DNA of 64,000 bases from Solibacteraceae bacterium (GCA_037444625.1 JBBIMA010000018.1:1-64000), one strand, 5' to 3'; counted from the stretch's first letter, positions 8,744 through 40,474 are shown. The notes: generated by a model from the sequence alone, not told the origin. Made by a program: numbers and translations.

Positions 8744-10306
8744 TCAGCCCTTCTGCTGCTCGACTTCGACCGGGCCGCCTTTGCCGGCGGCCGGCTTCGA
8801 GCCGAGCTGCTCGAGCACGGCCGGCAAGCTCAGCCCCAGCGCCTCCAGTTGCTGGAGCAGGCTGAAAACCACCGCCGGGCCGGTGCGCGCCAGGCGCGCC
8901 GCGCCCGTGCCGCCGCTGTCGCCCGTGCCCTGATCAATCACCACCAGCTTGTCAATGTTGCCCATGGGCGCGGCCACCGCGCTGAAGATGCCGGTGGAAG
9001 CTTGCAGAATCGAGGGCAGCTTCTCGAGCACGGTTTGCAGCTTGGCCGCTTCGTTGAACTGCTTCCAGGCTTCCGCCTTGCGCAGGATGGCGGCCGCCTC
9101 GGCCACGCCCTGCGCTTCGATGGCTTTGGCCTGCGCCAGGCCGACGGCTTCGATCTTGGAGGCCTCCGCCTTGCCCTCGGCTTCGATGGCGGCCGCCCGC
9201 CCGATGCCCTCCTTGCGCAGCTTTTCCTGCTCGGCTTCGGCCATGGCGATCAGGGCCGCCCGCCGGCCCTCGGCCTCCAGGATGGCGGCTTGCTTGGCGG
9301 CCTCGGCGCGCACGATGGCCGCTTGCCGCTCGGCGTCGGCCGGCTTGATGACGGTGGCTTCCAGCTCTTTCTGCTTGCGCAGCACCTCCTGTTCCTGAAC
9401 GGAGATCATCTCCTGGGTGCGGGTGCGCTCGATTTTGACCTCCTCGGCCACCACCGCCTGGCGGGCCTGCGCCTCCGAGAGGGGCCCGGCCTGCTTGGCC
9501 CGCGCCTTCTGCGTCTCGACTTCGGCCTGGTATTGCGCCTGGCGGATTTGAAAATCGCGCTCCGCCAGGGCGATCTCGGCTTCGGCCGCGAACTTAGCCC
9601 GCTCGCCTTCTTGCAGCGCCTGGGCGGAGCGGATCTTGGCGTCGCGGGTGGCTTCCGCCTCCCCGATGGTGGCGTCCCGCTTGACCTCGGCCGTGCGCCG
9701 CTTGCCCAGCGCGTCCAGATAACCTTCCTCGTCGCTGATCTCCTGGATGGTGAGCACGTCCACGCCCAGGCCCATCTTTTCCAGGTCCATGGCCGCTTCG
9801 CTGGTCAGCTTCTGGGCGAAGCTCTGCCGGTCGGAGTTGATCTCCTCGACCGTCAGCGTGCCCAGGATCGAGCGCAGGTGGCCCTCCAGCGTCTGGTAGA
9901 TCACCCGGTGCATCTGCTCCTGGTTCATGCCCAGGAAGCGCTCGGCGGCCGCTTGCAGGGAGGCGTCGTCGCTGCGGATCTTCACGTTGGCCACCGCTTT
10001 GACCGAGACCGGCACGCCCTTGAGCGTGTAGGCCCGCTTGATCTCCAGGGGAATGGTGATCACGTTCAGCGAGAGGTAGTCCACCTTCTCCAGCAGGGGG
10101 AATTTCAGCGCCGCCCCGCCCTTCACCATCCGGTAGCCCACCACCCGCCCGTCGGCCAGCCGCCGCTTGCGCCCGCTCAACACGGCCACCGTGTTGGGGG
10201 AAACCTTCAGGTAATTGCGGCTGAACAGCCAGGCCGCGATGAACAGGCCCAGAACGACCAGCAGCACGATGACCGGAAGGAACAACTGCGTGACGTCCTG
10301 CAACAT
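8744..10306 (-). CDS. floT: flotillin (SPFH/band-7 domain, FloT/YuaG-like)
   Basis: 520 aa with an N-terminal TM segment, an SPFH domain, then a long Ala/Glu-rich coiled-coil (AEAEQEKLRKEG, EAEGKAEASKIEA), typical of flotillin. Confidence 0.75.
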   Translation of the reverse strand: MLQDVTQLFLPVIVLLVVLGLFIAAWLFSRNYLKVSPNTVAVLSGRKRRLADGRVVGYRMVKGGAALKFPLLEKVDYLSLNVITIPLEIKRAYTLKGVPVSVKAVANVKIRSDDASLQAAAERFLGMNQEQMHRVIYQTLEGHLRSILGTLTVEEINSDRQSFAQKLTSEAAMDLEKMGLGVDVLTIQEISDEEGYLDALGKRRTAEVKRDATIGEAEATRDAKIRSAQALQEGERAKFAAEAEIALAERDFQIRQAQYQAEVETQKARAKQAGPLSEAQARQAVVAEEVKIERTRTQEMISVQEQEVLRKQKELEATVIKPADAERQAAIVRAEAAKQAAILEAEGRRAALIAMAEAEQEKLRKEGIGRAAAIEAEGKAEASKIEAVGLAQAKAIEAQGVAEAAAILRKAEAWKQFNEAAKLQTVLEKLPSILQASTGIFSAVAAPMGNIDKLVVIDQGTGDSGGTGAARLARTGPAVVFSLLQQLEALGLSLPAVLEQLGSKPAAGKGGPVEVEQQKG

Positions 10307-10330
10307 GAGAACTCCTTTCCGGCGCCCCTC

Positions 10331-10885
10331 TCAGGCGCCGCCCGCTTGCTGACGCACGATCACGGTTTCGCCCAGCACCTGTTCGATGCGGACGATCTCG
10401 TTCTCCGCGATCGCCTCGCCGTCCTGGGAGCGCGCGATCTTGTCCAGCAGCTCTTCGCCCAGCCGGCAGCGCACCTGTCCCACCCCGCCCTTGGGAATGG
10501 CCACCACCACCCGCGCCGGTTGCCCGACCAGGTCGGCCGAGCGCAGCTCGGTGCTGGCTTGCTGGCTCCAGAGGAAGCGCGCAAAGGCGTAAATGATCGA
10601 GGCGAACAGCACCCCGCTGGCGAAGCCCACCGCCGAGGCCGGCGCCGGCGAAGCGCCGTAGTAACTCGCGACCGCCCCGAAGCCCCCGAAGGCCGTCACG
10701 AATACGCTCAGGATGCGGGTGGAAAAGATGCCCGGCCCGCCGTGGTCCAGGTCATGATCCAGCCCGTCGCCCAAGTGCTCGAAGATCTCCCCGAATACCA
10801 GGGAGACCAACAGGAACAGGAAGCCCACCCCGGCGATGCCGAGGAAGATCGTGAAGGCGGAGATCTGCGTCAACCAGCCGGGCAT
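10331..10885 (-). CDS. NfeD-family membrane protein (flotillin partner, YuaF-like)
   Basis: 184 aa with N-terminal TM helices and a C-terminal OB-fold-like soluble domain. It sits immediately upstream of the flotillin gene in the conserved nfeD-floT arrangement. Confidence 0.7.
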   Translation of the reverse strand: MPGWLTQISAFTIFLGIAGVGFLFLLVSLVFGEIFEHLGDGLDHDLDHGGPGIFSTRILSVFVTAFGGFGAVASYYGASPAPASAVGFASGVLFASIIYAFARFLWSQQASTELRSADLVGQPARVVVAIPKGGVGQVRCRLGEELLDKIARSQDGEAIAENEIVRIEQVLGETVIVRQQAGGA

Positions 10886-10994
10886 GGGCCGACCTCAGCA
10901 AGCGCAGTCTAGCCCAGCCCGGCCCGGCAAGTCAAACCGTGCGCCGCCCCCGGGGACTCTCCGGCGAGGCCCGGGCGCCCGGGGGGCGTGCCCT

Positions 10995-11093
10995 TCAGCT
11001 CGACATCTTGCGCTTGCGGCGGCGCATGATCAACAGCACCAGCACACCGCCCGCAGCGATCCACAGAATGGCCGACAACAACGAGTTGTCCAT
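10995..11093 (-). CDS. 32-aa single-pass membrane peptide with polybasic tail
   Basis: Not in the ORF track. ATG is preceded by AAGGAGAGG at -5. Sequence MDNSLLSAILWIAAGGVLVLLIMRRRKRKMSS*, GC3-rich. Confidence 0.45.
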   Translation of the reverse strand: MDNSLLSAILWIAAGGVLVLLIMRRRKRKMSS

Positions 11094-11160
11094 TTATCCT
11101 CTCCTTTCTTCCTCAGTGATTCGCCCTGTACCCTCGGCTCGGCCGCTCATGGGACCCGCC

Positions 11161-12093
11161 TCACATCTGGAACGACTTCATCATCGGGAACAGGTTCTTG
11201 AACAATTGCAGCAAGCCCGGCCCGGCCGCCACCACCAGCATGGCCGGCAGAATGAAAAAGAAGATCGGGAAGACCAGCTTGACGCCCACCTTGGCGGCCC
11301 GCTCTTCGGCCTGCTGGCGCCGGCGCACGCGCATGAAGTCCGAGTGGGCGCGCAGGGAGTCCGCGATGCTGGTGCCGAAGCGGTCGGCCTGAATCAGGGT
11401 GGCCACCAGTTTGCGGATCTCGGGCTCGCCCGTGCGGTCGGCCAGGTTTTTCAGCGCCTCCTGCCGCCGCTTGCCCGCCCGCATCTCCAGGTTCACCAGG
11501 CTCAACTCCTGGCTGATCTCCGGGTGGCTCAGCGCCAGCTCCCGGCTCACGTTCACCATGGCTTGATCCAGCCCCAGGCCCGCTTCCATACAGACGATCA
11601 TCAGATCCAGGGCGTCCGGCAGCGACAAGCGCAGCTTCTCCTGCCGCCGGGCCACCAGGTGATCCAGCGCCATGTTGGGGGCGAAAAAGCCGGCCAGCGC
11701 GGCCGCCACCACCAGCACCGTGCGCAGCACCGGGCTGTCGGTGGCGTAATCGCGAAACAGCAGGGCCAGAATCAGCAGCGCCGCGCACAAGACCACCTTC
11801 AGCCCGTAGTAAATCTTGGGCGCGACCTCCGAGCGGATCCCCGCCGCCATCAGATACCGGCGGGTGACGGAAGTCTCCTGCGGCGAGATGGGAACCTTCT
11901 CGCCGATCTGCTCGACCAGGCGCACCAGCAGCGGCTTTTCGCCCGGCCCGGTCAAAGCGGCCGGCGCCTCGAGCGCCACCGGGCTGCCCAACTGCTCGTA
12001 CAGGCGCCGGGGGCGCACGTAGAGCCGGTAGCCGTAGGCGGTGATGCTGAGGGTCAGCAGCACGAACAGCGCGACGGAAACCAGCAGAGCCAT
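11161..12093 (-). CDS. tadC: Tad pilus inner-membrane platform protein TadC (T2SS-F family)
   Basis: 310 aa with a TM topology and conserved region typical of GspF/TadC. Confidence 0.85.
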   Translation of the reverse strand: MALLVSVALFVLLTLSITAYGYRLYVRPRRLYEQLGSPVALEAPAALTGPGEKPLLVRLVEQIGEKVPISPQETSVTRRYLMAAGIRSEVAPKIYYGLKVVLCAALLILALLFRDYATDSPVLRTVLVVAAALAGFFAPNMALDHLVARRQEKLRLSLPDALDLMIVCMEAGLGLDQAMVNVSRELALSHPEISQELSLVNLEMRAGKRRQEALKNLADRTGEPEIRKLVATLIQADRFGTSIADSLRAHSDFMRVRRRQQAEERAAKVGVKLVFPIFFFILPAMLVVAAGPGLLQLFKNLFPMMKSFQM

Positions 12094-12097
12094 GGCT

Positions 12098-13060
12098 TCA
12101 CACCTTGATGTCCACGATCTTGCGGATGGTCAGGTGCCCCAACAACAGGCCCACGATCGCTCCCGCGATGATGTATTTGCCGTCCGGGTCGGCCGCCATG
12201 GATTGCAGATATCCCGGGGCCACCACCATCAACCCCAGCATCAGCAGCACCGGCATGATCGTCAGCACCGCGCCGGTCACCCGGCCGTGCGCGCTGGCCG
12301 CCCGCACCTGTCCCTTGAGCTGGAACCGCTCCCGGATGATGCGCGCCAGCTTGGTCAGCACCTCGGCCAGGTTGCCGCCCGTCTCCCGTTGCAGCAGCAC
12401 CGCCGAGACGAAGAACTTGACGTCCAGCAAGGGGACCCGCTCGGCCAGGTTCTTCAGCGCCGTGTCAATCGGCAAACCCAGGTTCTGCTCGTTGAAGACC
12501 TTGCGGAACTCGGTGCTCAGCGGCGGCGAGGACTCCCCGGCCAGCATCTCCAGGCTGATGGAAAAGGCGTGGCCGGCGCGCATGGCCCGGGCCAGAAAGT
12601 CCAGCGCCTCGGGGAATTGTTCCTCGAAGGCGGCCAGCCGCAGTTTGCGCTGCCGCAGCACGTACAGATAGGGCAGCGCCGCCCCGGCCAGGGCGGCGGC
12701 GGTGGCGCTCAGCCAGGGGACCATCAACACGCGCAGCCACATCCCGATCAGGCCGCCCAGCAGGCCGGCCAGCATCATCTGCACCAGCAGGCCGCCCGCC
12801 GTCAGGGTCATGCCGGCCTGCTGGATGTGCGCCTCCATCTTGCGCAACAGGTCGAAACGCTCCAGCAGCCGGCCCAGCAGGGGCGCCTTCTCCGGCTCCA
12901 GCAACACCGTGGTGACCACCGTGGCGGCGCGCCCCCCGGCGGTCTCCAGCATGCCCGTGAGTTTCTTCTTCCGCTGCCCCTCCAGGAAGCGGAAGCCCAG
13001 GCCCAGGGTCAGCGCCACCAGGGCGAAAATCAGCAGAAAGGTAATGACCGCGGCCGTCAT
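12098..13060 (-). CDS. tadB: Tad pilus inner-membrane platform protein TadB
   Basis: 320 aa T2SS-F-like, 5 nt upstream of tadC. Confidence 0.85.
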   Translation of the reverse strand: MTAAVITFLLIFALVALTLGLGFRFLEGQRKKKLTGMLETAGGRAATVVTTVLLEPEKAPLLGRLLERFDLLRKMEAHIQQAGMTLTAGGLLVQMMLAGLLGGLIGMWLRVLMVPWLSATAAALAGAALPYLYVLRQRKLRLAAFEEQFPEALDFLARAMRAGHAFSISLEMLAGESSPPLSTEFRKVFNEQNLGLPIDTALKNLAERVPLLDVKFFVSAVLLQRETGGNLAEVLTKLARIIRERFQLKGQVRAASAHGRVTGAVLTIMPVLLMLGLMVVAPGYLQSMAADPDGKYIIAGAIVGLLLGHLTIRKIVDIKV

Positions 13061-13067
13061 GGCTCCC

Positions 13068-14426
13068 CTACCCGATCTCGACTTTGGTCTGGAAAACGGC
13101 CGCCGGCAACTGGATGCCGGCCGCCTTCAGACGTTCGCTGAACTTGGGCCGAATGCCCGTGGGACGGAAACGGCCCAGCACCTTGCCGTCCTCCCGGACC
13201 CCGGTCTTCTCGAACACGAAGATGTCCTGGCCGGTGACCTGATCGCCCTCCATGCCCACGCACTCCATCAAGTGCGTCACCCGGCGGCTGCCGTCGCTGA
13301 AGCGGGCGATCTGCACGAACAGGTCAATGGCCGAACTGATCTGCTGGCGGATGGCGCGCACCCCGATGTTGGAGTTGGCCATGCCCACCATCACCTCCAG
13401 CCGGCTGATGGCGTCCCGGGGCGAGTTGGCGTGGATGGTGGTGAGCGAGCCGTCGTGGCCGGTGTTCATGGCCTGGAGCATGTCCAGGGCCTCTTCGCCG
13501 CGCACCTCGCCCACGATGATGCGGTCCGGCCGCATGCGCAGGGCGTTGATCACCAACTGCCGGATCCGGATCGCGCCCTGGCCCTCGATGTTGGGCGGGC
13601 GGGCCTCCATGCGCGCCACGTGGATCTGCCGCAACTGAAGCTCGGCGGCGTCCTCGATGGTGACGATCCGCTCGTCCTCGGGGATGAAGCCCGAAAGCAC
13701 GTTCAGCAAGGTGGTCTTGCCCGCCCCGGTGCCGCCCGAAATCACGATGTTCAAGCGGGACCGCACACAGGCCTTCAGCACCTCGAGCATCCCCTCGGTC
13801 AGGGTCAGATTCCGCACCAGCTCGGCCGCGGTGATCGGATCCCGCCGGAAGCGCCGGATCGAGAGCAGCGGCCCGTCCACCGCCACCGGCGGGATCACGG
13901 CGTTGACGCGCGAGCCGTCGGGCAGCCGGGCGTCCACCATGGGCGAGGACTCGTCCACCCGCCGCCCCACCCGGGCCACGATCTTCTCGATGATCCGCAG
14001 CAGGTGCTGGTTGTCCTTGAACTCGACCGGCGTGCGCTGTAACTTGCCGTTGCGCTCCACGTACACCAGCCGGGGCGTGGTCACCAGGATGTCCGAGACG
14101 GTCGGATCCTGCAACAGCGGCTCCAGCGGTCCCAGACCGAAGACTTCGTTGAGAACCTCTTCGGTCACCCGCTCCTTCTCGGCCAGGCTCAGCGGAGTGC
14201 GCTCCTCTTCCACCAGCCGCGCCACCGCCGCCCGCACCTCCATGCGGACCCGCTCGCCCGCCAGCGACCCGAGCGCCTCCAGATTGATCCGCTCCAGCAG
14301 CTTGCGATGCAGAGCGAATTTCAGTTCCTGGTACTCGGGCGCCACCGCGGGCGTTTCCATCACCCGGTTGACCCAACCGGCTTCCATCGCCGCCCGGACG
14401 CCCGTCATCCCGCTGTCCACCGCCAT
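13068..14426 (-). CDS. cpaF: Tad pilus secretion ATPase CpaF/TadA
   Basis: Walker [10 protein letters not shown], Asp box, Walker B and His box of VirB11/TadA ATPases ([23 protein letters not shown]). Confidence 0.92.
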
Positions 14427-14462
14427 AGCCCGGCCTCCTTAAAGTCTTCCTTTCATCCCACC

Positions 14463-15638
14463 TCAGAAAAAGATGCCCAGCCTGGACTTGGCCTTTTCGG
14501 CCCGCTCCTCCGGCAGGCCCGCGATCTTGGCCGTCAGACGGCTGAACTGCCGGCCCAGCTCGCTGGCGGCCGGCAACAGATTCCCCTCCGAGTAACTCTC
14601 GTACAACTCCGGATAACTGTTGGGCAGACCGGCGAAGATCTCCAGCCCCAGAACCTTCTCCAGCTCGCCCTGGGTCAAGTCGGGCTGCCGGGGCATGCGG
14701 TTCAAAATCAACTGAAGGCGCTTCTGGCCGTAGCCGAAATCCAACAGATTCTGGGCGATTTGTTTCACCCGGTGCAGCGCCAGCACGTCGAAGGTCGCCA
14801 CCAGAAAGGCTTGATCCAGATCCGCCAGCACCGCCAGCGTCAGCGGCGTCAGGCTCCGCCCCAGGTCCACCACCACCCAGTCGTAGACCGTCCGCGTGAA
14901 GCGCAGCACTTGGCGGAACAGGTCCGGCGCCAGCGGCTCGGCCGTATCGGTCATGCGCGGCGCCGCAATCACCTCCACCTGCGGCTGGCCGTTCGACACC
15001 AGCGCCTTCCAGTAACTGCCGTCCAACCGGTGCAGATTGCGCACCGCGTCCAAAATCGAGTACTCGCTGCTCGCCTTCATCAGGAAGCTCAGCAGCCCGG
15101 TCTCCAGATCCAGGTCCGCCAGCAGCACGTCCTTCGAGGTCTGGCGCTGAAGCTCGACCCCCACGTGACAGGCCACCGTGGTCGCCCCGCAGCCGCCCTT
15201 GGCCGAGAGGAAGCCCAGGATCTTGCCCGGCTCGCGCACCGGCTGGCGCACCCGCGCCCGTTCGCTCGTCAGGCGGATCAGCGCCTTTTCCAGGGCGCCC
15301 TCCAGCGGAGGGTACAGGTACTCGCTGGCCCCCGCCCGGATCGCCGCCAGGATGGTCTCCGGCTCGACCGTGGTGCTCAGAGCGATCAGCATCGGCTGGG
15401 CCAGGGTGGATCGGATCCGGCGCAACGCCTCCTCGAAAGCGGGCCCCACCGCGCTCAGCTCCACCAACACCACGTCCGGACGAATTCGGTCCAGCTCGTC
15501 CAGGAATCGAGCCCAATCCTGGACCGCGGGCTGATCGAAAACGATCCGCGCGGGCGAACCGCGCAGCGAGAGCTGCACCTGGTTCCACAGTTCGCGATGC
15601 GCGACGATCAGCCCGATCTTGATTTCCTGCGCTATCAT
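14463..15638 (-). CDS. cpaE: pilus assembly protein CpaE/TadZ
   Basis: N-terminal receiver-like domain, then a ParA/MinD ATPase domain with deviant Walker A LSAKGGCGATT. Confidence 0.8.
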   Translation of the reverse strand: MIAQEIKIGLIVAHRELWNQVQLSLRGSPARIVFDQPAVQDWARFLDELDRIRPDVVLVELSAVGPAFEEALRRIRSTLAQPMLIALSTTVEPETILAAIRAGASEYLYPPLEGALEKALIRLTSERARVRQPVREPGKILGFLSAKGGCGATTVACHVGVELQRQTSKDVLLADLDLETGLLSFLMKASSEYSILDAVRNLHRLDGSYWKALVSNGQPQVEVIAAPRMTDTAEPLAPDLFRQVLRFTRTVYDWVVVDLGRSLTPLTLAVLADLDQAFLVATFDVLALHRVKQIAQNLLDFGYGQKRLQLILNRMPRQPDLTQGELEKVLGLEIFAGLPNSYPELYESYSEGNLLPAASELGRQFSRLTAKIAGLPEERAEKAKSRLGIFF

Positions 15639-15678
15639 TGCCGCCCCTGGGATCGAAAGCCTTGCGCTCAGCTCCTCC

Positions 15679-17193
15679 TCATGGATTGGGCGCCCCTTCG
15701 CTCTTGGGGCGCTCCGGACTGGGCGCCGGCGCCGGTGTGATCTGGATGGTCGGCGCAGCGGCCGCCGGCGCCGCTTTGGGCTCGGCCAGTTGCTCGACGG
15801 GCACCTTCTCCCGCACCGGCTTCACCGGCACCGGACCGGTCGCCTCCATCCCGGGCGTTCGCGGGGCGGCCGTGGGGGCCCCCTTCATGAAGGGCACCGG
15901 CATGCTCACCCCGGGCAGCGGCTGCCCCGGCGGGATGGGCCGCACCAGCTCAGGCGTCACCGCCACCAGCAGCTCGGTGTTGCTCTTGGTCAACGAGCGC
16001 GATTGAAACAGCTTGCCCAGCACCGGGATGTCTCCGATGCCCGGAATCTTGCTGAAGCTCTCGATCACCCGGTTGTCCAGCAGCCCGGCGATCAGGAAGC
16101 TCTGCCCGGATTCCAGCTCGATTTCGGTCTGCACCCGGCGGGTCGAGATGGCCGGAATGGTGAAACCCTGGAGCACGACCGCGTTGCTGTAATCCAGCGA
16201 GCTGACCTCGGGCGTCACCCTCAGCCGAATCGTCCCCCGGGGCGTGACCGTGGGCAGGAAGTTGATCCGCACGCCGAACTCGCGCCACTGGATGGTGATC
16301 GCGCCCGCCCCGGCTATGCCCGACTGCACCACCGGGATGGGGAACTCGCCGCCCGCCAGGAAACTGGCCCACTGCCCGTTCATGGCCAGCAGGTTCGGCT
16401 CGGCCAGCATCTCCAGCAGCCGCTTGCCTTGCAAAGCCCGGATGGTCGCCGCCAGGTCCAGGTCCGGGCGGAACAAAAAGATATTGAGCGCATCGGTCAG
16501 ACTGAAGACCGCCCCCTGCCCGGTGGCAAAGTCCGCCCGCGGCGCCTGGAACTGCTGGGTGGTGATCGAGCCTTGCGTGTTCAAGGCGCCGGTGGAGAAA
16601 ATGTTGGCCCCCAGCTCCTGCGAGGCCTGCCGGTCCACATTGGCGAAGCGCACCTTCAGCAGGATCTGCTGCTCGGCCGGGGGCGTCTTGACGTAGAGCA
16701 GGTTGACCGTCTTGCCCAGCGTCTCGGCGATCTGCACCGCCCGCTCGGCCGCGATGCGGTCGTTTACCGTGCCGCGCAGAAAGACGCTCTCTCCTTCGAG
16801 GGAAATGCTCACCTCCTGGCCCGGCAGCTCCTTCTCCAATTCCTGCCGCACCGCCTCCAGGCGCGCCGGACTGGGGCGCACCTTCAGATCGAACAACAGG
16901 CGGGCGCCGCCCTGCTGCCAGATGATGAGACTGGTTTCGCCCGGGGCCAGCCCGTTGACCAGCACTTCCTTGGGCGTGATGGCGACCGCCTCGGCGATCT
17001 TGCCGTCGGCCACCGAGACGCGCTGGATCACCGTCGGGCTTTCCACCACCAGGGACTTACCCGCCGTGACGAACAGGTCGCGCGCCCCGCCCGGCGGCTG
17101 CTGGGCCAGCACCACCGCTCGCGTTCCCAGGAAGGCGCCGATCAACAGGATCCAGATCGTCGAGAACAGCAACAACGCGCGGCGCGGCTTCAC
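15679..17193 (-). CDS. cpaC: Tad pilus secretin CpaC/RcpA
   Basis: GTG start with a signal peptide. BON/N-domains and a C-terminal secretin domain (GIPVLGKLFQS). Start overlaps cpaB stop as GTGA. Confidence 0.85.
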   Translation of the reverse strand: MKPRRALLLFSTIWILLIGAFLGTRAVVLAQQPPGGARDLFVTAGKSLVVESPTVIQRVSVADGKIAEAVAITPKEVLVNGLAPGETSLIIWQQGGARLLFDLKVRPSPARLEAVRQELEKELPGQEVSISLEGESVFLRGTVNDRIAAERAVQIAETLGKTVNLLYVKTPPAEQQILLKVRFANVDRQASQELGANIFSTGALNTQGSITTQQFQAPRADFATGQGAVFSLTDALNIFLFRPDLDLAATIRALQGKRLLEMLAEPNLLAMNGQWASFLAGGEFPIPVVQSGIAGAGAITIQWREFGVRINFLPTVTPRGTIRLRVTPEVSSLDYSNAVVLQGFTIPAISTRRVQTEIELESGQSFLIAGLLDNRVIESFSKIPGIGDIPVLGKLFQSRSLTKSNTELLVAVTPELVRPIPPGQPLPGVSMPVPFMKGAPTAAPRTPGMEATGPVPVKPVREKVPVEQLAEPKAAPAAAAPTIQITPAPAPSPERPKSEGAPNP

Positions 17194-18080
17194 GGTTTGA
17201 CCTCCGGATTGGGCCCGAACTTGGTCTCCGCGCGCTTGGCGCCGTGCAGCACCTCGACCACCAGCGGCGGCGGCTCCGGTTTGGGCTCCGCCTTGGGCGG
17301 GGCTTTGGGCGCCGGGGCGGCGGCCCGCCGCGGCGGCGCCGAGGGCGCCGAGATCGGGTTCACGAACGGCTGGCCGGTGAAAAGGTTGGCCAGCGCCGTG
17401 CCTTTGGTCTTGGCCACCTCGGTGTCCAGCGGGTTGCGCAACACCAACTGGATCCGGGTCTCGTTGCCCGCCAGCGTCAGAATCTCAGCCTGCTCCGGCG
17501 TCACCAGCAGGTTCACCACCGGCACCGAGACCGGCTTGCCTTCGGCGTCCTTCTGGATGTTCTGCCCCGCGGAAAGCACCTCGATGTTCTGGAGCACCGT
17601 TCGGGCCAGCGTGCCCAGGTTGGCCGGTGCGCCCGGCGGGTTGCCCGAGATCAACACATCCACCCTCATGCCGGGAACCACGAAGCCGCCCACGCCCACC
17701 ACCTCGTTCACCCGCACGGCCACGGCGCGCATCCCGGGCGGGATGGTGGCCGCCAGGCCTGCGCCGGCGCCCTTGGGCGCCAGCCGGGTCTCCAGAATCG
17801 GTTCGTCCTGATAAATGTTCGAGACCACGCCCCGCCCCACGATGTCTTCACGCTTCAAGACCGCGTTGGGAGGCACGGGGCCGGCCCATTCCACCTGGCG
17901 CAAATCGGGGTCGCGGATCAGAGTGCCTACCGGCAGGTTGCGCGCCGCCACCATCAGCAGCGTCGTGGCCGGCTTGGCCTGCTGGCCCAGACGGCTGGCC
18001 GTGAGGCGGTACACCAGGAAGCTGGCCACGCCCGATACCACCAGCGCGAAGACCAGCACCGACACAAATCGCTTATTCAT
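17190..18080 (-). CDS. cpaB: Flp pilus assembly protein CpaB/RcpC
   Basis: N-terminal TM anchor, SAF/RcpC domain, Pro/Ala-rich C-terminus. Confidence 0.8.
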   Translation of the reverse strand: MNKRFVSVLVFALVVSGVASFLVYRLTASRLGQQAKPATTLLMVAARNLPVGTLIRDPDLRQVEWAGPVPPNAVLKREDIVGRGVVSNIYQDEPILETRLAPKGAGAGLAATIPPGMRAVAVRVNEVVGVGGFVVPGMRVDVLISGNPPGAPANLGTLARTVLQNIEVLSAGQNIQKDAEGKPVSVPVVNLLVTPEQAEILTLAGNETRIQLVLRNPLDTEVAKTKGTALANLFTGQPFVNPISAPSAPPRRAAAPAPKAPPKAEPKPEPPPLVVEVLHGAKRAETKFGPNPEVKP

Positions 18081-18130
18081 TTGTGGTCCTCCACCCTGCC
18101 GGACAGATTACCGCAACCCAGTCGGAAAGA

Positions 18131-18157
18131 AAAGGGGCATGCGGGGGCATGCCCCCC
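18131..18157 (-). terminator. intrinsic terminator/attenuator directly after flp
   Basis: On the minus strand the sequence GGGGCATGC-CCCC-GCATGCCCC forms a 9-bp GC stem followed by TTTTCTTTCC. It lies between the flp stop (18169) and the cpaB start (18080). Confidence 0.5.
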
Positions 18158-18168
18158 TGAGATAACGA

Positions 18169-18366
18169 CTAGCTTCCGCCGCTACCCGACGCCGACGCAG
18201 CGGCCGCGCCGAGCTGGCTGTTCGCCACATTCCAGATCGTTTGCACGCTGCCGCCGGCGCCGATGAACAGGGCCGCGGAAGCCAGGGCCACGAAAGCCAG
18301 CAGCAAGGTGTACTCGACCAGGTCCTGGCCTTGCTCGTCCCGCAGGAAATTCTTCAGAAGTCTCAT
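18169..18366 (-). CDS. flp: Flp-family type IVb prepilin
   Basis: 65 aa, MRLLKNFLRDEQGQDLVEYTLLLAFVALASAALF. It has the Flp leader, the G/xxxxEY processing motif and a hydrophobic helix, and ends in a Ser/Gly/Ala-rich tail GAAAASASGSGGS. Confidence 0.85.
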   Translation of the reverse strand: MRLLKNFLRDEQGQDLVEYTLLLAFVALASAALFIGAGGSVQTIWNVANSQLGAAAASASGSGGS

Positions 18367-18370
18367 GCTG

Positions 18371-20083
18371 TCACTCTCCTCGCAAGAAGTTGGGCGAACC
18401 ATGGAGCGCCGCGGCCGCGAGACCCCGTTGCGGCTCGCCCGCTCCATGGACCGCCTGGGTGGCTCCGCGTGATCGCGCGATCACGCCGGCTTCGTCCGGC
18501 TCTCCGGCCGAAGCCTGAAACCGGGGGCCATCCGCCCCCTCCCTTCGAAAAACGATGGCGATGCCGTCGTCATACACCAGCCGCCATCGCCGGGATTCCT
18601 TGAGCAGACTGGCGAGGGCCGAATCGGCCCGCAGGACCGCCGTCCGGGGACCGTAGCGGTCCAGGCTCTCGCGCCAGTCGTAACGGCCCCGCACCAGATC
18701 CAATAGCTCGAGGCCCAGCCGGGCGCCGTAGAAATCGCTGCGCCCGTCAATGAATACCCGGGTGCGGGGATAAAGCCGGTAGATCAGGTAATCGCCCCAC
18801 TCGTCGTCCGAGAAAACGTCGCCGGCCAGCGCCTCCGGCCCCAGGGCCTGGATGGCGGCCGCCGGATAGCGCTTGGGATCGTAGTCGGCGCGGAATTTCT
18901 CGGGCGCGCCGGGCAGCCACAGCAGCGCACCCACGCCCGCCAGGGCGGCGGCGCTCAGCCAGGGCACGCGGGCGGCGCGGTCCACCTCGCCCAGCTCGGC
19001 GGAAAAGCCTCTCAGCGAGGCGGCCGCCCGGCGCAGCCACGCCGGGACGCCGGCCTCAGCCAGCCCGTCGAGGGCCTCGCGCAGGCTCCGGGCGATGATC
19101 GGGGCGGCCAGGAAGGCGAAAATCGGGATATTTCTGGCCGCGAGCAGCGCCAGGTGTCCCCAACCAAGGAGCAGGATTGCGTGCGTATACCGGCGCCGGC
19201 AGAGGCACCAGAAAGCCGCCACGGCGCCCGCCGCCAACAATGCTTCGAAGTAAATGGCCGCCGGATGATGGAAACTCAGCGACAGAAATTCGTTGATGTT
19301 ATTGAAATGGTAAGAGTCCGTGAGATACCGCAGGATGTGGGCGTGCAGGCGCCAGGTGTAAGGGTTCAGAAAGCTGGCGAGCAGGCAGCCGGCGGCGCAC
19401 AGCAGGTAGGGCCGGACTCGCAGGAGTGAGGCGCGGCGCTCGGCCGCCTCCGGACTCAACAGCCAGGCGGCCAGCTCGCCAGCGGCATAGGCGCCGATCA
19501 AAAGGATGCCCACGAAAAAGCCGCCGTGCAGGTTGGTCCACAGGATAGTGAGCGGCGGCAGCCACCAGAGCAGCCGGCGGCGGCCTTCCCGGACCTGCTC
19601 CAACAGGCCGTAAAAAATGATCACGAGCAGCAGGGTGAACAGATGGGGCCGCGCCAGCCAGTGGATCGAGGAGGCGGCCAGCGCCAGGAAGGTCACCCCG
19701 ATCGCCAGCAGCACGTCCCCGCTCTGGGCCCGCGCCAGGCGGTACAGGAGCGCTCCCCCGAGCGAGATTACGGCCAGGCTGGCCAGCACGACCGCCGCCA
19801 TGCCCCAGTGCAGATGCAGCCAGCCGAAGACCACGTCCCAAAGCCACTCCCAGGCGTACCAGGGCTGGCCCGCCTTGGTGAAGGAGAACAGGTCGCGCTC
19901 GGGCACGCGCCCGTGGGCCAGGATCCACTCGCCGGTGCGCAGGTGCCAGCCGGTGTCCCCGTCGCTCAGCATGGAGCGGGCCCCATCCAGGCGCAGGAAT
20001 AGAAGCAGCGCCGGCATCAGGAAGGCCGCGTCGGCCAAGGAAGGCATCCAGCCTATGCGCCGGCTTGGTCCAGGCTGCTTCAT
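18371..20083 (-). CDS. polytopic membrane protein, putative GT-C (ArnT/PMT-like) glycosyltransferase
   Basis: About 570 aa with more than 10 TM helices. An acidic first periplasmic loop (SDGDTGWHLRTGEW, PERD) precedes a ~180-aa C-terminal soluble domain. It lies 5 nt upstream of flp; start chosen at MKQPGPS. The Gly-rich N-terminal extension in the ORF track overlaps pilZ and is probably not translated. Confidence 0.45.
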   Translation of the reverse strand: MKQPGPSRRIGWMPSLADAAFLMPALLLFLRLDGARSMLSDGDTGWHLRTGEWILAHGRVPERDLFSFTKAGQPWYAWEWLWDVVFGWLHLHWGMAAVVLASLAVISLGGALLYRLARAQSGDVLLAIGVTFLALAASSIHWLARPHLFTLLLVIIFYGLLEQVREGRRRLLWWLPPLTILWTNLHGGFFVGILLIGAYAAGELAAWLLSPEAAERRASLLRVRPYLLCAAGCLLASFLNPYTWRLHAHILRYLTDSYHFNNINEFLSLSFHHPAAIYFEALLAAGAVAAFWCLCRRRYTHAILLLGWGHLALLAARNIPIFAFLAAPIIARSLREALDGLAEAGVPAWLRRAAASLRGFSAELGEVDRAARVPWLSAAALAGVGALLWLPGAPEKFRADYDPKRYPAAAIQALGPEALAGDVFSDDEWGDYLIYRLYPRTRVFIDGRSDFYGARLGLELLDLVRGRYDWRESLDRYGPRTAVLRADSALASLLKESRRWRLVYDDGIAIVFRREGADGPRFQASAGEPDEAGVIARSRGATQAVHGAGEPQRGLAAAALHGSPNFLRGE

Positions 20084-20088
20084 CGCAG

Positions 20089-20502
20089 TCACATCAACAG
20101 GTGGCGAAACGCCTCCAGGTTCTCCACCACGCCCATCCGCGGGCTTTCCGAGTCCCGGAATTTCATCTGGTGAACCCGAAAAGCCACCGCCGCCCGACCC
20201 TCCGCCGGCCGCGCCACCCGCACCGCGGTGGCTTGGCAGTACAGGCATTTGCGGCCGAAGGAGTGATTGGCGGGCAATTCCACCTCCAGATCCAAAAGCT
20301 GGCCGATCTTAGGCAAGCGGCCCGCCTCGCGCGAATTCCAAAGGACGAGCATTCCTCCCCGGCTGATATTGGCGGTCAGCCCCACCAATACGCGCGAATT
20401 TCCCCTCAACGTGGGCAAATGACAAGGAAGCTGCACCTCCAGCCGCGGGTCGAGACGCCGGTCCATCATCCTTGAGTATTGCCGTTCCCCGGTCTGATTC
20501 AA
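20089..20502 (-). CDS. PilZ domain protein (c-di-GMP binding)
   Basis: RxxxR (RRLDPRLEV) and DxSxGG-like (ANISRGGM) PilZ motifs; first gene of the minus-strand Tad cluster. Confidence 0.7.
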   Translation of the reverse strand: MNQTGERQYSRMMDRRLDPRLEVQLPCHLPTLRGNSRVLVGLTANISRGGMLVLWNSREAGRLPKIGQLLDLEVELPANHSFGRKCLYCQATAVRVARPAEGRAAVAFRVHQMKFRDSESPRMGVVENLEAFRHLLM

Positions 20503-20717
20503 GATTGAAAATGGATGACATGGTTTTGTTGACCGAGGTTAGCCGGTTGGATACCAGGCTTTGGTACGGCCTGCCGGGTGACGGCTAGCACTTTGGTAAC
20601 AGCCGGCCCGCCTGCGGGGTCGGTCCGGGGGCGCAATGGGGTCTGGGCAGGGCGGAGGGACGGCCCGCGGGGCGGGGGCCCGGGTACTATCCGGCCGCAG
20701 GCAGAACAGTTCTGGGA

Positions 20718-20743
20718 GTACCGTTTAAAACGTACCCTTTAAA
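20718..20743. promoter_or_regulatory. AT-rich divergent promoter region with direct repeat GTACC(G/C)TTTAAA x2
   Basis: GTACCGTTTAAAACGTACCCTTTAAA lies in an AT-rich island unusual for this GC content. It sits between the divergent pilZ/Tad operon and the LuxR regulator, followed by TATGCTATT (-10-like). Confidence 0.3.
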
Positions 20744-20855
20744 TTTTGTTTCACTTTCCCGTCCTCTGGTGCTATGCTATTCCCTACCGGAGTATCCGCC
20801 GCCTACGGCGTCGGCCCGCGGGCGCCTGAGGGGCGGAGCAAGGAAGGTGACGACA

Positions 20856-21635
20856 ATGGCGCGCGTGGCCCTATTCACCGACGAACCCGTGCTGGCTACC
20901 GGCTTGACGGCCACTCTGGCGGCCGCCCCCGGCCTCGAGTTGGTCTCCGTCGCCAGCGATCCCGCACGGCTGCCCGGCTGCCTCGAGGAGGTCCGGCCCG
21001 ACATCCTGGTGATGGATCTCATCCCCGAAGTCAGCTTCGGCCTGCTCAGCCAACTGCACCGCCAGGCGCCCGAGTGCCGGCTGGTGCTTTGGACCCGCAC
21101 CATCTCGATGGAGCTGGCCTACCAGGTGATGGACCTGGGCGTGCGCGGCATCCTGAAAAAGACCCTGCCCCCGGAACTGGTGGTCAAATGCCTGACCAAG
21201 GTGGCCGAAGGCGAGCTCTGGTTCGACAAGAGCCTCACCGCCAGCTTCCTCACCGCGCGCACGGTCTCGCTGACCAACCGCGAGAGCCAACTGGTGACGC
21301 TGCTGGCGCAGGGCCTCAAGAACAAGGAAATCGCCACCGCCTTGTCCATCTCGGAAGGCACCGTGAAGGTCTATCTCTCGCGCTTGTTCCAGAAGGTGGG
21401 GGTGAAAGACCGCTTCGAGCTGGCTCTTTACGGGCTGCGCAATCTCCAGAACCTGCAAAACCTCGGGGCCGGGCCGGTGGAATTCCTGCCCGCCGGAGAG
21501 CCGGGCCGTGCCCCGGCACGCTTCCAGCCCTTGCGCTCGCTGGTGGTCGAACGCCCCGAGGCGGCCTTCCGCCGGCCCATGCTGCCCGCCAAAGGGGCCG
21601 GCCCCCGCGTCGCTTTTGGAAACCAGAGAGCCTGA
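20856..21635 (+). CDS. LuxR/FixJ (NarL-type) response regulator
   Basis: ATG preceded by AGGAAGG. Receiver domain (LVMDL) plus a C-terminal LuxR HTH (NKEIATALSISEGTVKVYLSRLFQKVGV). Confidence 0.8.
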   Translation: MARVALFTDEPVLATGLTATLAAAPGLELVSVASDPARLPGCLEEVRPDILVMDLIPEVSFGLLSQLHRQAPECRLVLWTRTISMELAYQVMDLGVRGILKKTLPPELVVKCLTKVAEGELWFDKSLTASFLTARTVSLTNRESQLVTLLAQGLKNKEIATALSISEGTVKVYLSRLFQKVGVKDRFELALYGLRNLQNLQNLGAGPVEFLPAGEPGRAPARFQPLRSLVVERPEAAFRRPMLPAKGAGPRVAFGNQRA

Positions 21636-21678: not shown

Positions 21679-23379
21679 ATGCTGGCGTGGTGGGCCATCG
21701 TCTCGGGTCTTACTGCGGCAAGACCGCGCCGCGTGGAAATCCCCAATTTCTTGCGCTGCGCCGCCCCGCCCCGCAGCCGCCGTTGGCCCTGCTTCGCCGC
21801 TTCGGCCGGCCTGCACCTGGCGGCGGTCCTCCTGCTGCCGGCGCTGAGCGACTGGCTGGCGGCTACCCAGCCGGCGGTCTGGGTGCGGCGCTACCGCTTG
21901 CTGCCCTCGGTCGAGATTCGCGTGCCCGAGCGCCTCTATCTGGCTTCGACCGGACGCTCGCCGGCCCGCAAGAGCCGCCCGAAGGCCGCGCCGCCCCGCC
22001 GCAACAGCCGGGCCGAAACGCCCGGACGGTCGAATAGGACCGACGGCACGCAGGCGGGCAACCGGCGGCCCAGGCGCTTTCAACTCCCGCGTTTGCGGGC
22101 GCGCCAGACCGACCAAACGCTGTTACAGCCCGATTTCCCCCCGGATCTTCCCGTGCTGAGCCGCATCAGCCTGCCCCAGGTCTTTTTCTGGGCCCCGCCC
22201 CCCTCGCCGGTCCTGCCCATCCGCAAGCCCTTCGTGATACCGGGCAGCGCCGAGCCGTTCGCCCAACTGCCCCGCCTTGACGCCCCGCCTCAACTGGCGC
22301 CGCCCAACTGGGAGACGCTGGCCAGGGAGCTGGCCGCCGCCTCGGCCCTGCAAGGCCGCCCGGACTCGCTCCTGCTGCCCGCCATCAGCCTGCCCATTCA
22401 GATAGCCGACTCGGCCGTTCCCCAGCCGCAGACGCACATCTCGGTGGACCGTTCGGTGGGCGATCCTCTGAGCGTGCTGGCGCTGAGCCCACGCGTACGA
22501 CCGCTGCGCGAGGAGTTGATCGTGCCGCCCGGCAACCAATTGGCCGAGCTGCTCAGCGCACCGGCCGGGTTAGGGCCGGGGGAAGGAGAAGGGGGCCGGC
22601 AGGGCGAAGGCGGAAAGGCGGGTGAGGGCGCCTCATCCAGCCCCGAGGCGGGCGCAGCCAGGACGGCGGCCGGCCGCGGGCCTGCCGCGGGCCAAACAGC
22701 CGCCGGTACGCAGGCGCAACGCGCCGCCGGCGCGACGGCAGCCTCCGCCGACACCCCACGGCAGCCTGGCGCCGATTCCCGGCCGGTGCCGGTTCGAGCC
22801 GATGGTGATGGCAGGACACCCTCCGCGGCGGGGTCGCCCACGGGGACTCAACTCGCCGCTGCCGGCCAGGCCCCCACGCCAGGAGCGGACCCGGCGGGTT
22901 CAGCCCTGCGCGTCGAACACCCCCCGGGCGGCGTCTTCGATGTCATCGTCGTGCAGCCCGGGCCGATCGAGGGCTTCCCCGAGTCCAGCGGGGCGCTCTC
23001 GGGCCGGCCGGTTTATTCGGTCTTCCTCAAGGTGGGCGCGCCGAGGGAATGGATTCTCCAGTATTGCGTCCCCGGAGAGGATCAGAGCGTGGTGGTCTCC
23101 GGCGGGGTCGTCCGGCTGGCGAATCCCTCGCCCGTCACCGCACCGTACCCTCGGCTCACCTACTTGCCCCCGTTGCGGCCGCGCCCCGGCGCCTACCTGA
23201 TGGTTCACGGCTTCCTGGATGCCGGGGGGCGATTCCAGCGGCTCCAAGTGCTGCGCGCGGCCGACCGCGAGGAAGGCGCAACGGTGCTGCCCGTATTGGA
23301 TCGCTGGGAATTCCGTCCGGCGATGCGCGACGGCCGCCCGGTGGAAGTGGAGATCCTGCTGGCTATCCCTCGCGGCTGA
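21679..23379 (+). CDS. TonB-C-like energy-transducer family protein (N-terminal TM, long Pro/Ala/Gly-rich linker)
   Basis: TM segment AASAGLHLAAVLLLPAL, a Pro-rich spacer, and a C-terminal TonB_C-like fold (VVSGGVVRLANPSP, LPVLDRWEFRPAMRDGRPVEVEILLAIP). Confidence 0.5.
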   Translation: MLAWWAIVSGLTAARPRRVEIPNFLRCAAPPRSRRWPCFAASAGLHLAAVLLLPALSDWLAATQPAVWVRRYRLLPSVEIRVPERLYLASTGRSPARKSRPKAAPPRRNSRAETPGRSNRTDGTQAGNRRPRRFQLPRLRARQTDQTLLQPDFPPDLPVLSRISLPQVFFWAPPPSPVLPIRKPFVIPGSAEPFAQLPRLDAPPQLAPPNWETLARELAAASALQGRPDSLLLPAISLPIQIADSAVPQPQTHISVDRSVGDPLSVLALSPRVRPLREELIVPPGNQLAELLSAPAGLGPGEGEGGRQGEGGKAGEGASSSPEAGAARTAAGRGPAAGQTAAGTQAQRAAGATAASADTPRQPGADSRPVPVRADGDGRTPSAAGSPTGTQLAAAGQAPTPGADPAGSALRVEHPPGGVFDVIVVQPGPIEGFPESSGALSGRPVYSVFLKVGAPREWILQYCVPGEDQSVVVSGGVVRLANPSPVTAPYPRLTYLPPLRPRPGAYLMVHGFLDAGGRFQRLQVLRAADREEGATVLPVLDRWEFRPAMRDGRPVEVEILLAIPRG

Positions 23380-23458
23380 TCCTGCGGCGGGCGGTACTTG
23401 ACCGATGGGGCTCCCTGTGTTAGGGTGTAGGCATCCCCCGCAGGAGGAGCCCCCAGCG

Positions 23459-40114: not shown

Positions 40115-40474
40115 ATGCCGGTATCCAGGCTCGTGCAGTTGATCCGCCGCGCCAAGCCCCTGACCCTCGAGGAAGGCCTGAACATCCTCAAGCGGGATCA
40201 TTACCGCTGCCAGTACTGCGGTCTGGACGGCGCGGCCAGCTTCGAGAACTACCTGGTGATGTCGGTGGATTTCGTCGTACCGCGGGCCAAAGGCGGCAAG
40301 AAGGAGCCGCGCAACCTGGTGGCCGCCTGCCGCCCGTGCAATCTCCTCAAGGGCCGCCGCTCCTTCCACAGCTTCGAGGAGGCTAAAGCTTACGTGCTCA
40401 AGCGCCGCGAGGAACTGCGCAAGGAGTGGGAATCCCGGATGGCGCGCTTGAAGGGCCACCGGGCGGCCGGCTAG
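40115..40474 (+). CDS. stand-alone HNH endonuclease
   Basis: HYRCQYCG..H..N..AACRPCNLLKG is an HNH/ββα-Me zinc-finger nuclease motif; 119 aa. Confidence 0.7.
   Translation: MPVSRLVQLIRRAKPLTLEEGLNILKRDHYRCQYCGLDGAASFENYLVMSVDFVVPRAKGGKKEPRNLVAACRPCNLLKGRRSFHSFEEAKAYVLKRREELRKEWESRMARLKGHRAAG

Follow-up and report, generated by a model that had tools for sequence, protein, structure and literature searches.

A Tad/Flp pilus locus from a Solibacteraceae bacterium with a predicted GT-C-fold membrane protein encoded beside flp

Described systems and the layout of the locus

Among bacterial adhesins, Tad/Flp pili rank with the most widespread. The canonical proteobacterial tad/cpa loci (Aggregatibacter and Caulobacter, and plasmids of Rhizobium, Azospirillum, Ralstonia and Burkholderia) carry a core set of flp, cpaB/rcpC, a secretin gene, tadZ, cpaF/tadA, tadB and tadC, together with a prepilin peptidase gene beside flp and genes for TadE, TadF, TadG and often TadD/CpaD. 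Here we analyze a Tad locus at positions 8,744 to 20,502 of a 64,000-nucleotide stretch of DNA from a Solibacteraceae bacterium (GCA_037444625.1 JBBIMA010000018.1:1-64000; 68% G+C; hereafter, the window). This locus shares with the canonical loci the core set, in similar order, and the G|xxxxEY leader of Flp, but it encodes instead a PilZ-domain protein, a 570-amino acid (aa) membrane protein with a predicted glycosyltransferase C (GT-C) fold, and a 32-aa membrane peptide. None of the eight canonical loci examined has a homologue of the GT-C protein. Our data support a distinct, conserved variant of the Tad system, defined by the PilZ protein, by a GT-C gene coupled to flp and by the 32-aa peptide, and the analogy with dedicated pilin glycosylases leads us to lean toward Flp as the substrate of the GT-C protein.

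Tad loci without the prepilin peptidase TadV have been described in Bdellovibrio bacteriovorus (2026 preprint), where Flp is processed by the type IVa pilus peptidase PilD, encoded elsewhere, and where PilZ-domain genes lie near tad. Unlike the compact locus of the window, the Bdellovibrio tad genes are dispersed, a TadZ-TadA fusion is among their products, and a glycosyltransferase coupled to the pilin has not been reported there.

Dedicated pilin-modifying enzymes are known from type IVa pili. TfpW, the pilin arabinosyltransferase found in Pseudomonas aeruginosa strains that belong to group IV, is, like the window protein, a membrane GT-C encoded beside the major pilin gene; it has 11 transmembrane (TM) segments, a periplasmic loop 1 with a DDX motif and a periplasmic C-terminal domain, and it modifies Ser/Thr residues of the pilin. 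Whereas tfpW lies downstream of pilA, the window gene, which belongs to a Tad system, is upstream of flp, and the C-terminal domain, which consists of tetratricopeptide repeats (TPRs) in TfpW, is alpha/beta and AglB-like in the model of the window protein. TfpO/PilO (P. aeruginosa 1244 and Acinetobacter) is likewise a dedicated glycosylase encoded beside a pilin gene, and it glycosylates the C-terminal Ser of type IVa pilin; here, 88% of the Flp sequences encoded next to the GT-C gene end in Ser. However, TfpO and PglL belong to the Wzy_C/O-antigen ligase family, whereas the window protein has no Wzy_C match and is predicted to fold like STT3, AglB and DPY19. The GT66 enzymes STT3, AglB and PglB differ from it in having 13 TM segments rather than about 11, in showing only 9–14% identity and no sequence-level match to it, and in that the window Flp has no N-x-S/T sequon. 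By description, the window protein is closest to TfpW in logic and topology; in predicted fold it is closest to STT3, AglB and PglB, and in putative acceptor to TfpO. Among Flp pilins, Flp1 of A. actinomycetemcomitans has been reported to be glycosylated, with RcpC implicated. A full-text search of a library of papers returned no paper on a pilin-coupled GT-C in a Tad locus and no description of a dedicated Flp-modifying enzyme.

Genes were called from G+C content at third codon positions (GC3), open reading frame (ORF) listing and translation, and were identified with Pfam and NCBIfam. The minus-strand block runs contiguously from 20469 to 8744 and comprises the following features, in order of transcription.

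20089..20469, minus: stand-alone PilZ-domain protein, 126 aa (Pfam PilZ at cutoff), first gene of the putative flp transcription unit
18371..20083 (from the ATG), minus: polytopic protein with predicted GT-C fold, 570 aa, from a family without annotation; no family match
18169..18366, minus: flp, Flp/type IVc prepilin, 65 aa, with the motif G|QDLVEY
18122..18158, minus: GC hairpin (12 bp) and U-tract (RNA fold), resembling an intrinsic terminator or attenuator
17190..18080, minus: cpaB/rcpC (TIGR03177, 207.5 bits; Pfam RcpC and SAF)
15679..17193, minus: cpaC/rcpA secretin (Pfam Secretin, T2SS-T3SS_pil_N and BON)
14463..15638, minus: tadZ/cpaE, ParA/MinD-type ATPase with a receiver-like N-terminal domain (Pfam AAA_31, CbiA and weak Response_reg; NCBIfam CpaE_hom)
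13068..14426, minus: cpaF/tadA secretion ATPase (T2SSE, 212 bits; TadA-family TIGR03819, 339.5 bits)
12098..13060, minus: tadB platform protein (Pfam T2SSF)
11161..12093, minus: tadC platform protein (Pfam T2SSF)
10995..11093, minus: 32-aa single-pass membrane peptide, conserved in relatives, with a strong Shine-Dalgarno sequence
10331..10885, minus: NfeD-like membrane protein (weak NfeD match, 20.4 bits, below cutoff)
8744..10306, minus: flotillin (SPFH/Band 7), partner of NfeD (Band_7, 91.9 bits; FloT model, 338.7 bits, below the 700-bit equivalog cutoff)

The six core assembly genes (cpaB, cpaC, tadZ, cpaF, tadB and tadC) are contiguous, co-oriented and all matched by Pfam or NCBIfam models, and flp is recognized by its motif. 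An initial annotation, made from the sequence of the window, had described a complete, co-oriented set of core Tad genes in an operon that opens with genes for PilZ and for a polytopic protein of ~570 aa; the genes present and their orientation agree with that description.

Coupling of the GT-C gene to flp and the predicted fold of its product

A scan of one genome per species (GTDB) returned 589 relatives, and we determined synteny by tblastn with the window proteins and by clustering of all called genes. The best 80 loci nearly all belong to metagenome-assembled genomes of Bryobacterales, with 47–68% identity. Wherever the contig reaches, the order is the same: a divergent response regulator gene, then PilZ, GT-C, flp (one to three copies), cpaB, cpaC, tadZ, cpaF, tadB, tadC and the 32-aa peptide. 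Because this arrangement recurs in ~80 species-level genomes, it is not due to chance. Thus, PilZ, the GT-C protein and the 32-aa peptide do travel with flp-tad across Bryobacterales, a question that the initial annotation had raised for PilZ and the GT-C protein, and its suggestion that the locus represents a distinct variant of the Tad architecture agrees with the conserved order.

The GT-C gene is tightly coupled to flp, which lies directly downstream of it in 76 of 84 loci. In the window, only 4 nt separate the GT-C stop codon from the flp ATG, and the GAGGAG Shine-Dalgarno sequence of flp lies inside the 3′ end of the GT-C gene. Among 77 loci, the two genes overlap by 4 nt in 22, lie within ±10 nt of each other in 36 and are separated by at most 60 nt in 70. 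The hairpin that follows flp folds with −30.1 kcal/mol (z = −3.7; none of 200 shuffles folded as well), and a GGGGGCAUGCCCCC-type hairpin with a U-tract likewise follows flp in many relatives. The tight spacing, taken together with this hairpin, suggests that PilZ, GT-C and flp form one unit, with attenuated read-through into the assembly genes. GC3 is lower in PilZ (0.77), the GT-C gene (0.81) and flp (0.83) than in the downstream tad genes (0.88–0.93), and this contrast of the 5′ module (18169–20469) may reflect different expression or a different history. A search with Rfam revealed no c-di-GMP (cyclic di-GMP) or other riboswitch in 18000–20900 at E ≤ 1, and in the whole window it matched only two tRNAs.

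The PilZ protein reaches 22.7 bits against PF07238, with a cutoff of 22.5, and contains both c-di-GMP motifs, RxxxR (as RLDPR) and NxSxxG (as NISRGG). A PilZ match lies at most 800 nt upstream of the GT-C gene in 65 related loci, and both motifs are present in 53 of them. Because the Pfam threshold is reached and both motifs are conserved, the protein is plausibly a c-di-GMP receptor; CpaF, TadZ and the GT-C protein are its candidate targets. We place its start at 20469 rather than at 20502, which yields 126 aa, because an N-terminus of the form M(M)DRRxxxR is conserved in relatives.

The 570-aa protein matched no sequence family in Pfam or NCBIfam, including the Tad families, and no PDB sequence. 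Profiles of alignments of its close (A1) and diverse (A2) homologues found nothing meaningful among PDB sequences, and the models of described GT-C families (Pfam STT3, PMT, PMT_2, GT87 and Arabinose_trans) did not match it. It nevertheless belongs to a very large family. At least 2,700 homologues identified by shared words are all labelled 'hypothetical' and carry no precomputed Pfam domain, and phmmer against 1.84 billion cluster representatives returned 22,010 matches at E ≤ 1e-3, 12,220 at E ≤ 1e-10 and 1,644 at E ≤ 1e-30; the >12,000 family clusters counted at E ≤ 1e-10 are clusters at 50% identity. Nine of ten distant members have no Pfam domain, and the tenth has C-terminal TPRs.

An AlphaFold2 model built from a 59-sequence alignment was confident (predicted local distance difference test, pLDDT, 86.3; predicted template-modelling score, pTM, 0.86). 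Its top structural matches were GT-C enzymes that glycosylate proteins (STT3, AglB, DPY19, PglB and Pmt), and Foldseek on the model gave the same families. The C-terminal alpha/beta domain resembles the C-terminal domain of AglB, and the structural neighbours also include GT-Cs of the AftA, ArnT, ALG and PimE types, which modify lipids or glycans. Model helices and hydropathy together give a topology of 11 TM segments, with the N-terminus inside, the C-terminus outside and Arg-rich cytoplasmic loops.

In this topology, the polar residues conserved across homologues of 30% identity all lie on the periplasmic side (residue numbers count from 18371–20086, one codon upstream of the ATG). Loop 1 contains D42(-G-D44), H48, D65 and E80; further conserved residues are H142/R146/H148, W183/H187, N241/E266 and R318, and the C-terminal domain has a (D/E)-W-G-x-Y-L-I-Y motif and D447-G-R-x-D451 (D447/R449/D451). 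The D42-G-D44 motif lies ~10 residues past TM1; in A1, D44 does not vary and D42 is conserved to 90% or more, and D42 remains at least 90% conserved in A2, at 30% identity. This layout is that of a GT-C active site, in which D42 and D44 would be putative catalytic residues, and because of it the earlier guess that the protein is 'GT-C-like', with which the confident structure prediction agrees, is supported. We therefore describe the protein as a predicted GT-C-fold enzyme, closest in fold to STT3, AglB and PglB.

The near-invariance of D42, H48, D65, E80, R146, H148, H187, E266, R318 and D447/R449/D451 at the membrane–periplasm interface, in an active-site-like arrangement, makes it very unlikely that the protein is instead a non-enzymatic structural or assembly factor, such as a membrane scaffold or a pilin chaperone replacing the missing accessory proteins. 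Such a role would fit the lack of a sequence match to any characterised glycosyltransferase, and also a locus from which TadE/F/G and TadV are missing and in which general Pfam scans did not reveal TadD; moreover, non-catalytic GT-C-like proteins exist, and PIG-U/GAB1 is among the structure matches. However, the gene occurs with family 2 glycosyltransferase (GT2) and sugar-nucleotide synthesis genes in loci L086, L178 and L180, and it is retained in relatives that have TadV and TadE/F/G.

The GT-C family also occurs in or beside Tad loci of Acidobacteriota, Desulfobacterota and Nitrospirota, and members with 31–35% identity to the window protein come from hosts of 37–60% G+C. Gene orders in such loci include the following.

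L178, Desulfobacteraceae: TadG/TadE, further on DUF362, two membrane proteins, GT2, GT-C, GT2, Flp, A24 peptidase, RcpC, secretin, TadZ, CpaF, TadB, TadC
L180, 83% identical to the P0173 subfamily (Desulfobacterota/Nitrospirota): two DegT, an epimerase/dehydratase and an acetyltransferase (an amino-sugar synthesis set), GT2, GT-C, response regulator, two Flp, A24 peptidase, full tad operon
L179, Nitrospirae: tadZ, cpaF, tadB, tadC, GT-C, DUF192 and, further on, PMT_2
L085, 42% G+C: tadC, squalene-hopene cyclase (SQHop)-like protein, DUF362, GT-C
L086, 39% G+C: GT-C, GT2, epimerase

In addition, ~18 of ~30 loci of the P0256 subfamily with enough flanking sequence have a convergent tad operon 4–5 kb away; by a rough estimate, a random gene is expected at 8 kb or less from a tad locus in only ~1% of cases. 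Read from gene order, these data point strongly to a genomic link, across several phyla, between the GT-C family, sugar-donor genes and Tad pili. The GT2 genes that flank family members in L086, L178 and L180 suggest a putative polyprenyl-phosphate-linked sugar donor.

Other membrane proteins recur at these loci. GT-Cs of known families are found at the 3′ end of tad operons, namely GT87 in some Bryobacterales (L022, 20237–21334) and PMT_2 in L179 (8257–9825). A module of a squalene-cyclase-repeat (prenyltransferase-like) protein of ~290 aa, a DUF362 protein with a TAT signal and a ~500-aa polytopic protein lies beside tad operons in Acidobacteriota and Desulfobacterota (L001, L008, L010 and ~30 other loci, at ~19.3–21.6 kb, as well as L085, L178 and L180). 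The ~500-aa protein carries a QAGDLSSHxYN or QDGPSHxYN motif after TM1 and has no Pfam match; the QAGDLSSHxYN family is absent from the window. BLAST and hhalign (probability 1.3%) gave no sign that it is a remote paralogue of the GT-C protein.

Flp as candidate acceptor

The leader of the window Flp is MRLLKNFLRDEQG, and the cleavage site reads MRLLKNFLRDEQG|QDLVEYTLLLAFVALASAALF, a G|xxxxEY-type site followed by a hydrophobic helix; the match to Pfam Flp_Fap is sub-threshold (E 0.039). Mature Flp has 52 aa and ends in AAAASASGSGGS. Across Bryobacterales, mature Flp has 43–55 residues and a variable tail of Ala, Ser, Thr and Asn. The last residue is Ser in 90 of 102 distinct related sequences (88%) and Thr in three, typically as [A/G]-Ser. 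The terminal Ser is also found in 79 of 91 distinct eight-residue tails; in the nine tail positions before it, the share of Ser is only 16%. Beyond Bryobacterales, it occurs in the Desulfobacteraceae locus L178 (...AAAS) and in two loci of 49–52% G+C (L155 and L166).

As controls, we used tad loci of proteobacterial plasmids that lack this GT-C, found through CpaF (Flp is too short and low in complexity for tblastn against plasmids). Only one of eight control Flp sequences ends in Ser, which differs from the related loci with a Fisher p of 2e-6, uncorrected for phylogeny. A 585-aa Sphingobium protein encoded just upstream of flp, at first a candidate GT-C, proved to be TadG-like, with one TM segment and no similarity to the window GT-C. 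N-glycosylation of Flp is unlikely, as an N-x-S/T sequon is lacking in the window Flp and occurs in only 36 of the 102 relatives.

The orientation of Flp fits with modification by the GT-C protein, since Flp would be bitopic, with its C-terminal tail in the periplasm, on the same side as the conserved GT-C residues. We consider it on balance probable, by analogy with TfpW and TfpO, that the 570-aa protein serves dedicated glycosylation of Flp. In this mechanism, the locus would be a functional Tad/Flp (type IVc) pilus operon of lineage-specific yet widely conserved design, with a NarL-type regulator encoded divergently. Its first unit would supply a c-di-GMP-binding PilZ protein, a GT-C glycosyltransferase and the Flp prepilin, followed by an attenuator hairpin and then by cpaB-cpaC-tadZ-cpaF-tadB-tadC and the 32-aa peptide. 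Flp would enter the inner membrane such that the leader stays cytoplasmic and the C-terminal tail, rich in Ser and Ala, reaches the periplasm, where the acidic loop-1 motif and the C-terminal domain of the GT-C protein would also lie; the enzyme would transfer a sugar from a polyprenyl-phosphate-linked donor to the Flp tail, in the Bryobacterales lineage probably to the terminal Ser. A prepilin peptidase whose gene lies elsewhere would then cleave Flp, CpaF, TadB and TadC would polymerise it through the CpaB/CpaC conduit, and PilZ may couple assembly, or the modification step, to c-di-GMP.

Several observations weigh against Flp glycosylation. The choice of Flp as acceptor follows from gene adjacency only, the window contains no donor-synthesis genes (GT2 or flippase), and solved GT-Cs share only 8–16% identity with the protein, the fold being that of a predicted model. 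Flp sequences from Bryobacterales are not phylogenetically independent of one another, and they were compared with a small control set (n = 8). The two Flps of L180 end in ...GGV and ...TDV, and that of L177, where the GT-C gene is ~10 kb from flp, ends in ...SSLQ; because of these counter-examples, the terminal Ser site is a lineage-level hypothesis and not a rule of the family. No tad genes lie within 10 kb of one Bryobacterales paralogue (L071), and thus the GT-C family is not exclusively linked to Tad. In addition, the Caulobacter Tad pilus shows no glycan density, and Flp glycosylation is therefore not general.

The main rival to Flp glycosylation is another pilus- or envelope-associated substrate: the GT-C would be co-regulated with the pilus but would glycosylate a minor pilin, the secretin, CpaB, lipopolysaccharide, lipid A or an adhesive exopolysaccharide. 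We regard this as unlikely, although less so than a non-enzymatic role. The AftA, ArnT, ALG and PimE types that stand among the structural neighbours besides the oligosaccharyltransferases (OSTs) would fit it, but the best fold matches are protein-modifying enzymes and the C-terminal domain is OST-like. Similarly, the GT-C gene lies at the far end of tad, or kilobases from flp, in the P0256 subfamily, L179 and L159, whereas the near-overlap with flp is kept in 70 of 77 Bryobacterales loci, an arrangement that mirrors pilA-tfpO and pilA-tfpW. The Flps of L180 and L177 without a terminal Ser would also be accommodated, but this Ser is conserved specifically where GT-C and flp adjoin. Finally, the other membrane proteins found in relatives, including GT87, PMT_2 and the DUF362/SQHop-like module, suggest a larger glycan pathway.

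Flp glycosylation, if it takes place, may extend beyond this lineage. We tentatively propose, while holding it to be less probable than Flp glycosylation in the window locus, that a large unnamed family of OST-like GT-Cs (>12,000 clusters at 50% identity, in Acidobacteriota, Desulfobacterota, Nitrospirota and other lineages) has O-glycosylation of Tad/Flp pilins, often at a C-terminal Ser, as its ancestral and main role, and would thus be the counterpart of TfpO/TfpW in Tad systems; c-di-GMP would control it in Bryobacterales via PilZ, and with the 32-aa peptide it would form a distinct Tad subtype. The locus and its relatives in at least three phyla provide a specific, testable candidate for Flp modification, an unannotated GT-C family coupled to flp. 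If the proposal is true, pilin-specific glycosylation would extend from type IVa to type IVc pili, a very large family of 'hypothetical proteins' would acquire a function, and a new OST-like enzyme would become available whose acceptor, a helix of ~50 residues ending in an Ala/Ser tail, is short and simple, which could be useful for glycoengineering.

Missing genes, locus borders and neighbouring features

The initial annotation had reported that TadV, TadE/F and TadG are absent. A Pfam scan of every sizeable ORF of the window found no match to Peptidase_A24, TadE or Tad families; a single further polytopic ORF that had been left unexplained is a sodium:solute symporter. Local hidden Markov models (HMMs) for TadV and TadE/G, built from proteins annotated as such in four to five tad loci on proteobacterial plasmids, were run on all six-frame ORFs of the window and of ~180 fetched loci. 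The TadV model matched nothing in the window, so that no tadV gene was found near the locus, and the sole window match of the TadE/G model was Flp itself (E 0.0024). No TadD turned up in the Pfam scans of window ORFs, although no search aimed at TadD was made.

This absence holds for the window, but such genes exist in the lineage. The local HMMs detected TadV-like ORFs in nine related Bryobacterales loci, within 10 kb and at varying positions (E 1e-18 to 1e-28), and, among 84 related loci, 18 with TadE/F/G clusters, which in most cases directly precede the GT-C gene; L030 also has Pfam Tad/TadE matches. Relatives with TadV and TadE/F/G still keep the GT-C gene. Because some relatives carry these genes close by, we take their absence to be a local feature. 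The local absence does not show that the system works without a prepilin peptidase: since the lineage has TadV-like genes, the Flp leader keeps its canonical cleavage site, and Bdellovibrio loci without TadV offer a precedent, the peptidase is most likely encoded elsewhere in the genome, and minor pilins are expected to be as well. Genes for TadV or TadE–G that are missing from a locus should thus not be taken as missing from the organism.

Two near-identical loci, L061 (filed as Nevskia soli) and L080 (filed as uncultured Gammaproteobacteria), have a GT-C-flp-tad arrangement of the Bryobacterales type with TadV directly upstream of the GT-C gene; their gammaproteobacterial names reflect either mis-binning or horizontal transfer.

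The operon closes with the 32-aa peptide, MDNSLLSAILWIAAGGVLVLLIMRRRKRKMSS, a single-pass protein with a polybasic C-terminal tail whose ORF has a strong Shine-Dalgarno sequence, AAAGGAGAGG. By tblastn, the peptide follows tadC in almost all related loci that extend to this point, and a stricter pattern search (x3-6-[IL]W[IL]xAG-TM-RRRKRK) found 36 copies in 28 loci, some in tandem. It matches no family, with only sub-threshold likeness to the TM segment and basic tail of LPXTG anchors. We rejected a GlyGly-CTERM or other sorting signal because the GG is not conserved and sits inside the TM segment. We regard the peptide as a genuine, as yet uncharacterised part of the Tad subtype. In L179, a 27-aa TM mini-ORF (MTIDVNTWLLVFIAVELALIFVRLGKK) occupies the same position, between tadC and the GT-C gene (~4330–4415), and may be the Nitrospirota analogue of the 32-aa peptide.

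By contrast with the 32-aa peptide, the NfeD-flotillin pair, which had been counted as part of the variant, adjoins the locus only in the window and in its two closest relatives, L176 (90% identity) and L004 (74% identity), whose NfeD orthologues have a weak NfeD_TM match. In ~32 other loci, the position after the operon is taken by the squalene-cyclase-repeat protein, the TAT-signal DUF362 protein, the ~500-aa membrane protein and sometimes GT87. NfeD-flotillin pairs commonly form a stand-alone operon. A promoter-like site and a GC hairpin lie between the 32-aa ORF and nfeD, but this evidence is weak: a promoter/terminator scan gave counts at the level of chance, and the hairpin past the 32-aa ORF did not outdo shuffles. 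The operon boundary before nfeD rests, for this reason, mainly on synteny, and the pair is probably a separate unit rather than a part of the Tad system.

These findings bear on a fuller version of the initial annotation, in which the NfeD-flotillin pair and the lack of TadV and pseudopilins would make up a self-contained alternative Tad machine, with flotillin microdomains organising assembly and no dedicated peptidase. The pair is close and co-oriented, it also adjoins the locus in the relatives of 90% and 74% identity, and one plasmid tad locus of canonical type (L168, Burkholderia sp. FXe9) has HflK/HflC (16225–19241), of the SPFH family, ~6 kb downstream, a single case that may be coincidence. 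We nevertheless hold such a machine to be highly improbable, as all other related loci (~80) have no NfeD-flotillin there and such pairs are, in general, common as independent operons. Furthermore, the canonical G|xxxxEY site in the Flp leader implies processing by a peptidase, TadV-like genes occur near the locus in nine relatives and TadE/F/G-like genes in 18, and PilD can process Flp in Bdellovibrio.

Upstream of PilZ, on the opposite strand, lie three genes.

20769..21635, plus: divergent NarL/FixJ-type response regulator (Pfam GerE and Response_reg; NarL-like in NCBIfam)
21679..23379, plus: 566-aa protein with an N-terminal TM segment, a Pro/Arg/Ala-rich linker and a weakly TonB_C-like C-terminus (sub-threshold TonB_C the sole match)
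23405..24658, plus: second TadZ/CpaE-like ParA ATPase paralogue (weak ParA-family matches; CpaE_hom, 65 bits; groups with TadZ by BLAST)

The response regulator is kept, and is divergent, in 55 related loci, and is likely to be the transcriptional regulator of the locus. The 566-aa protein is co-oriented with it, and homologues adjoin the regulator in ~25 or more loci. The second TadZ-like ATPase has a receiver-like N-terminus and belongs to the same divergent unit; L007, a relative of 68% identity, has a comparable extra TadZ-like copy upstream.

Three further features of the window lie away from the Tad locus. A ~1.6-kb stretch past tRNA-Ser(tga) (59825–59913), at 59914–61536, contains no ORF supported by GC3 and has a lower G+C (0.646 in the 60–62 kb bin); a degraded element or the scar of an integration may account for it. 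At 37270–40038 (plus), a 922-aa protein without a Pfam match is followed by a small HNH endonuclease ORF (40115–40474, plus) and by sulfatase and GH28 genes. Finally, two full-length recA paralogues lie in tandem at 48977–50014 and 50080–51153 (both minus), each matching RecA_C as well as Pfam RecA, the latter at E ~1e-134 to 1e-136.

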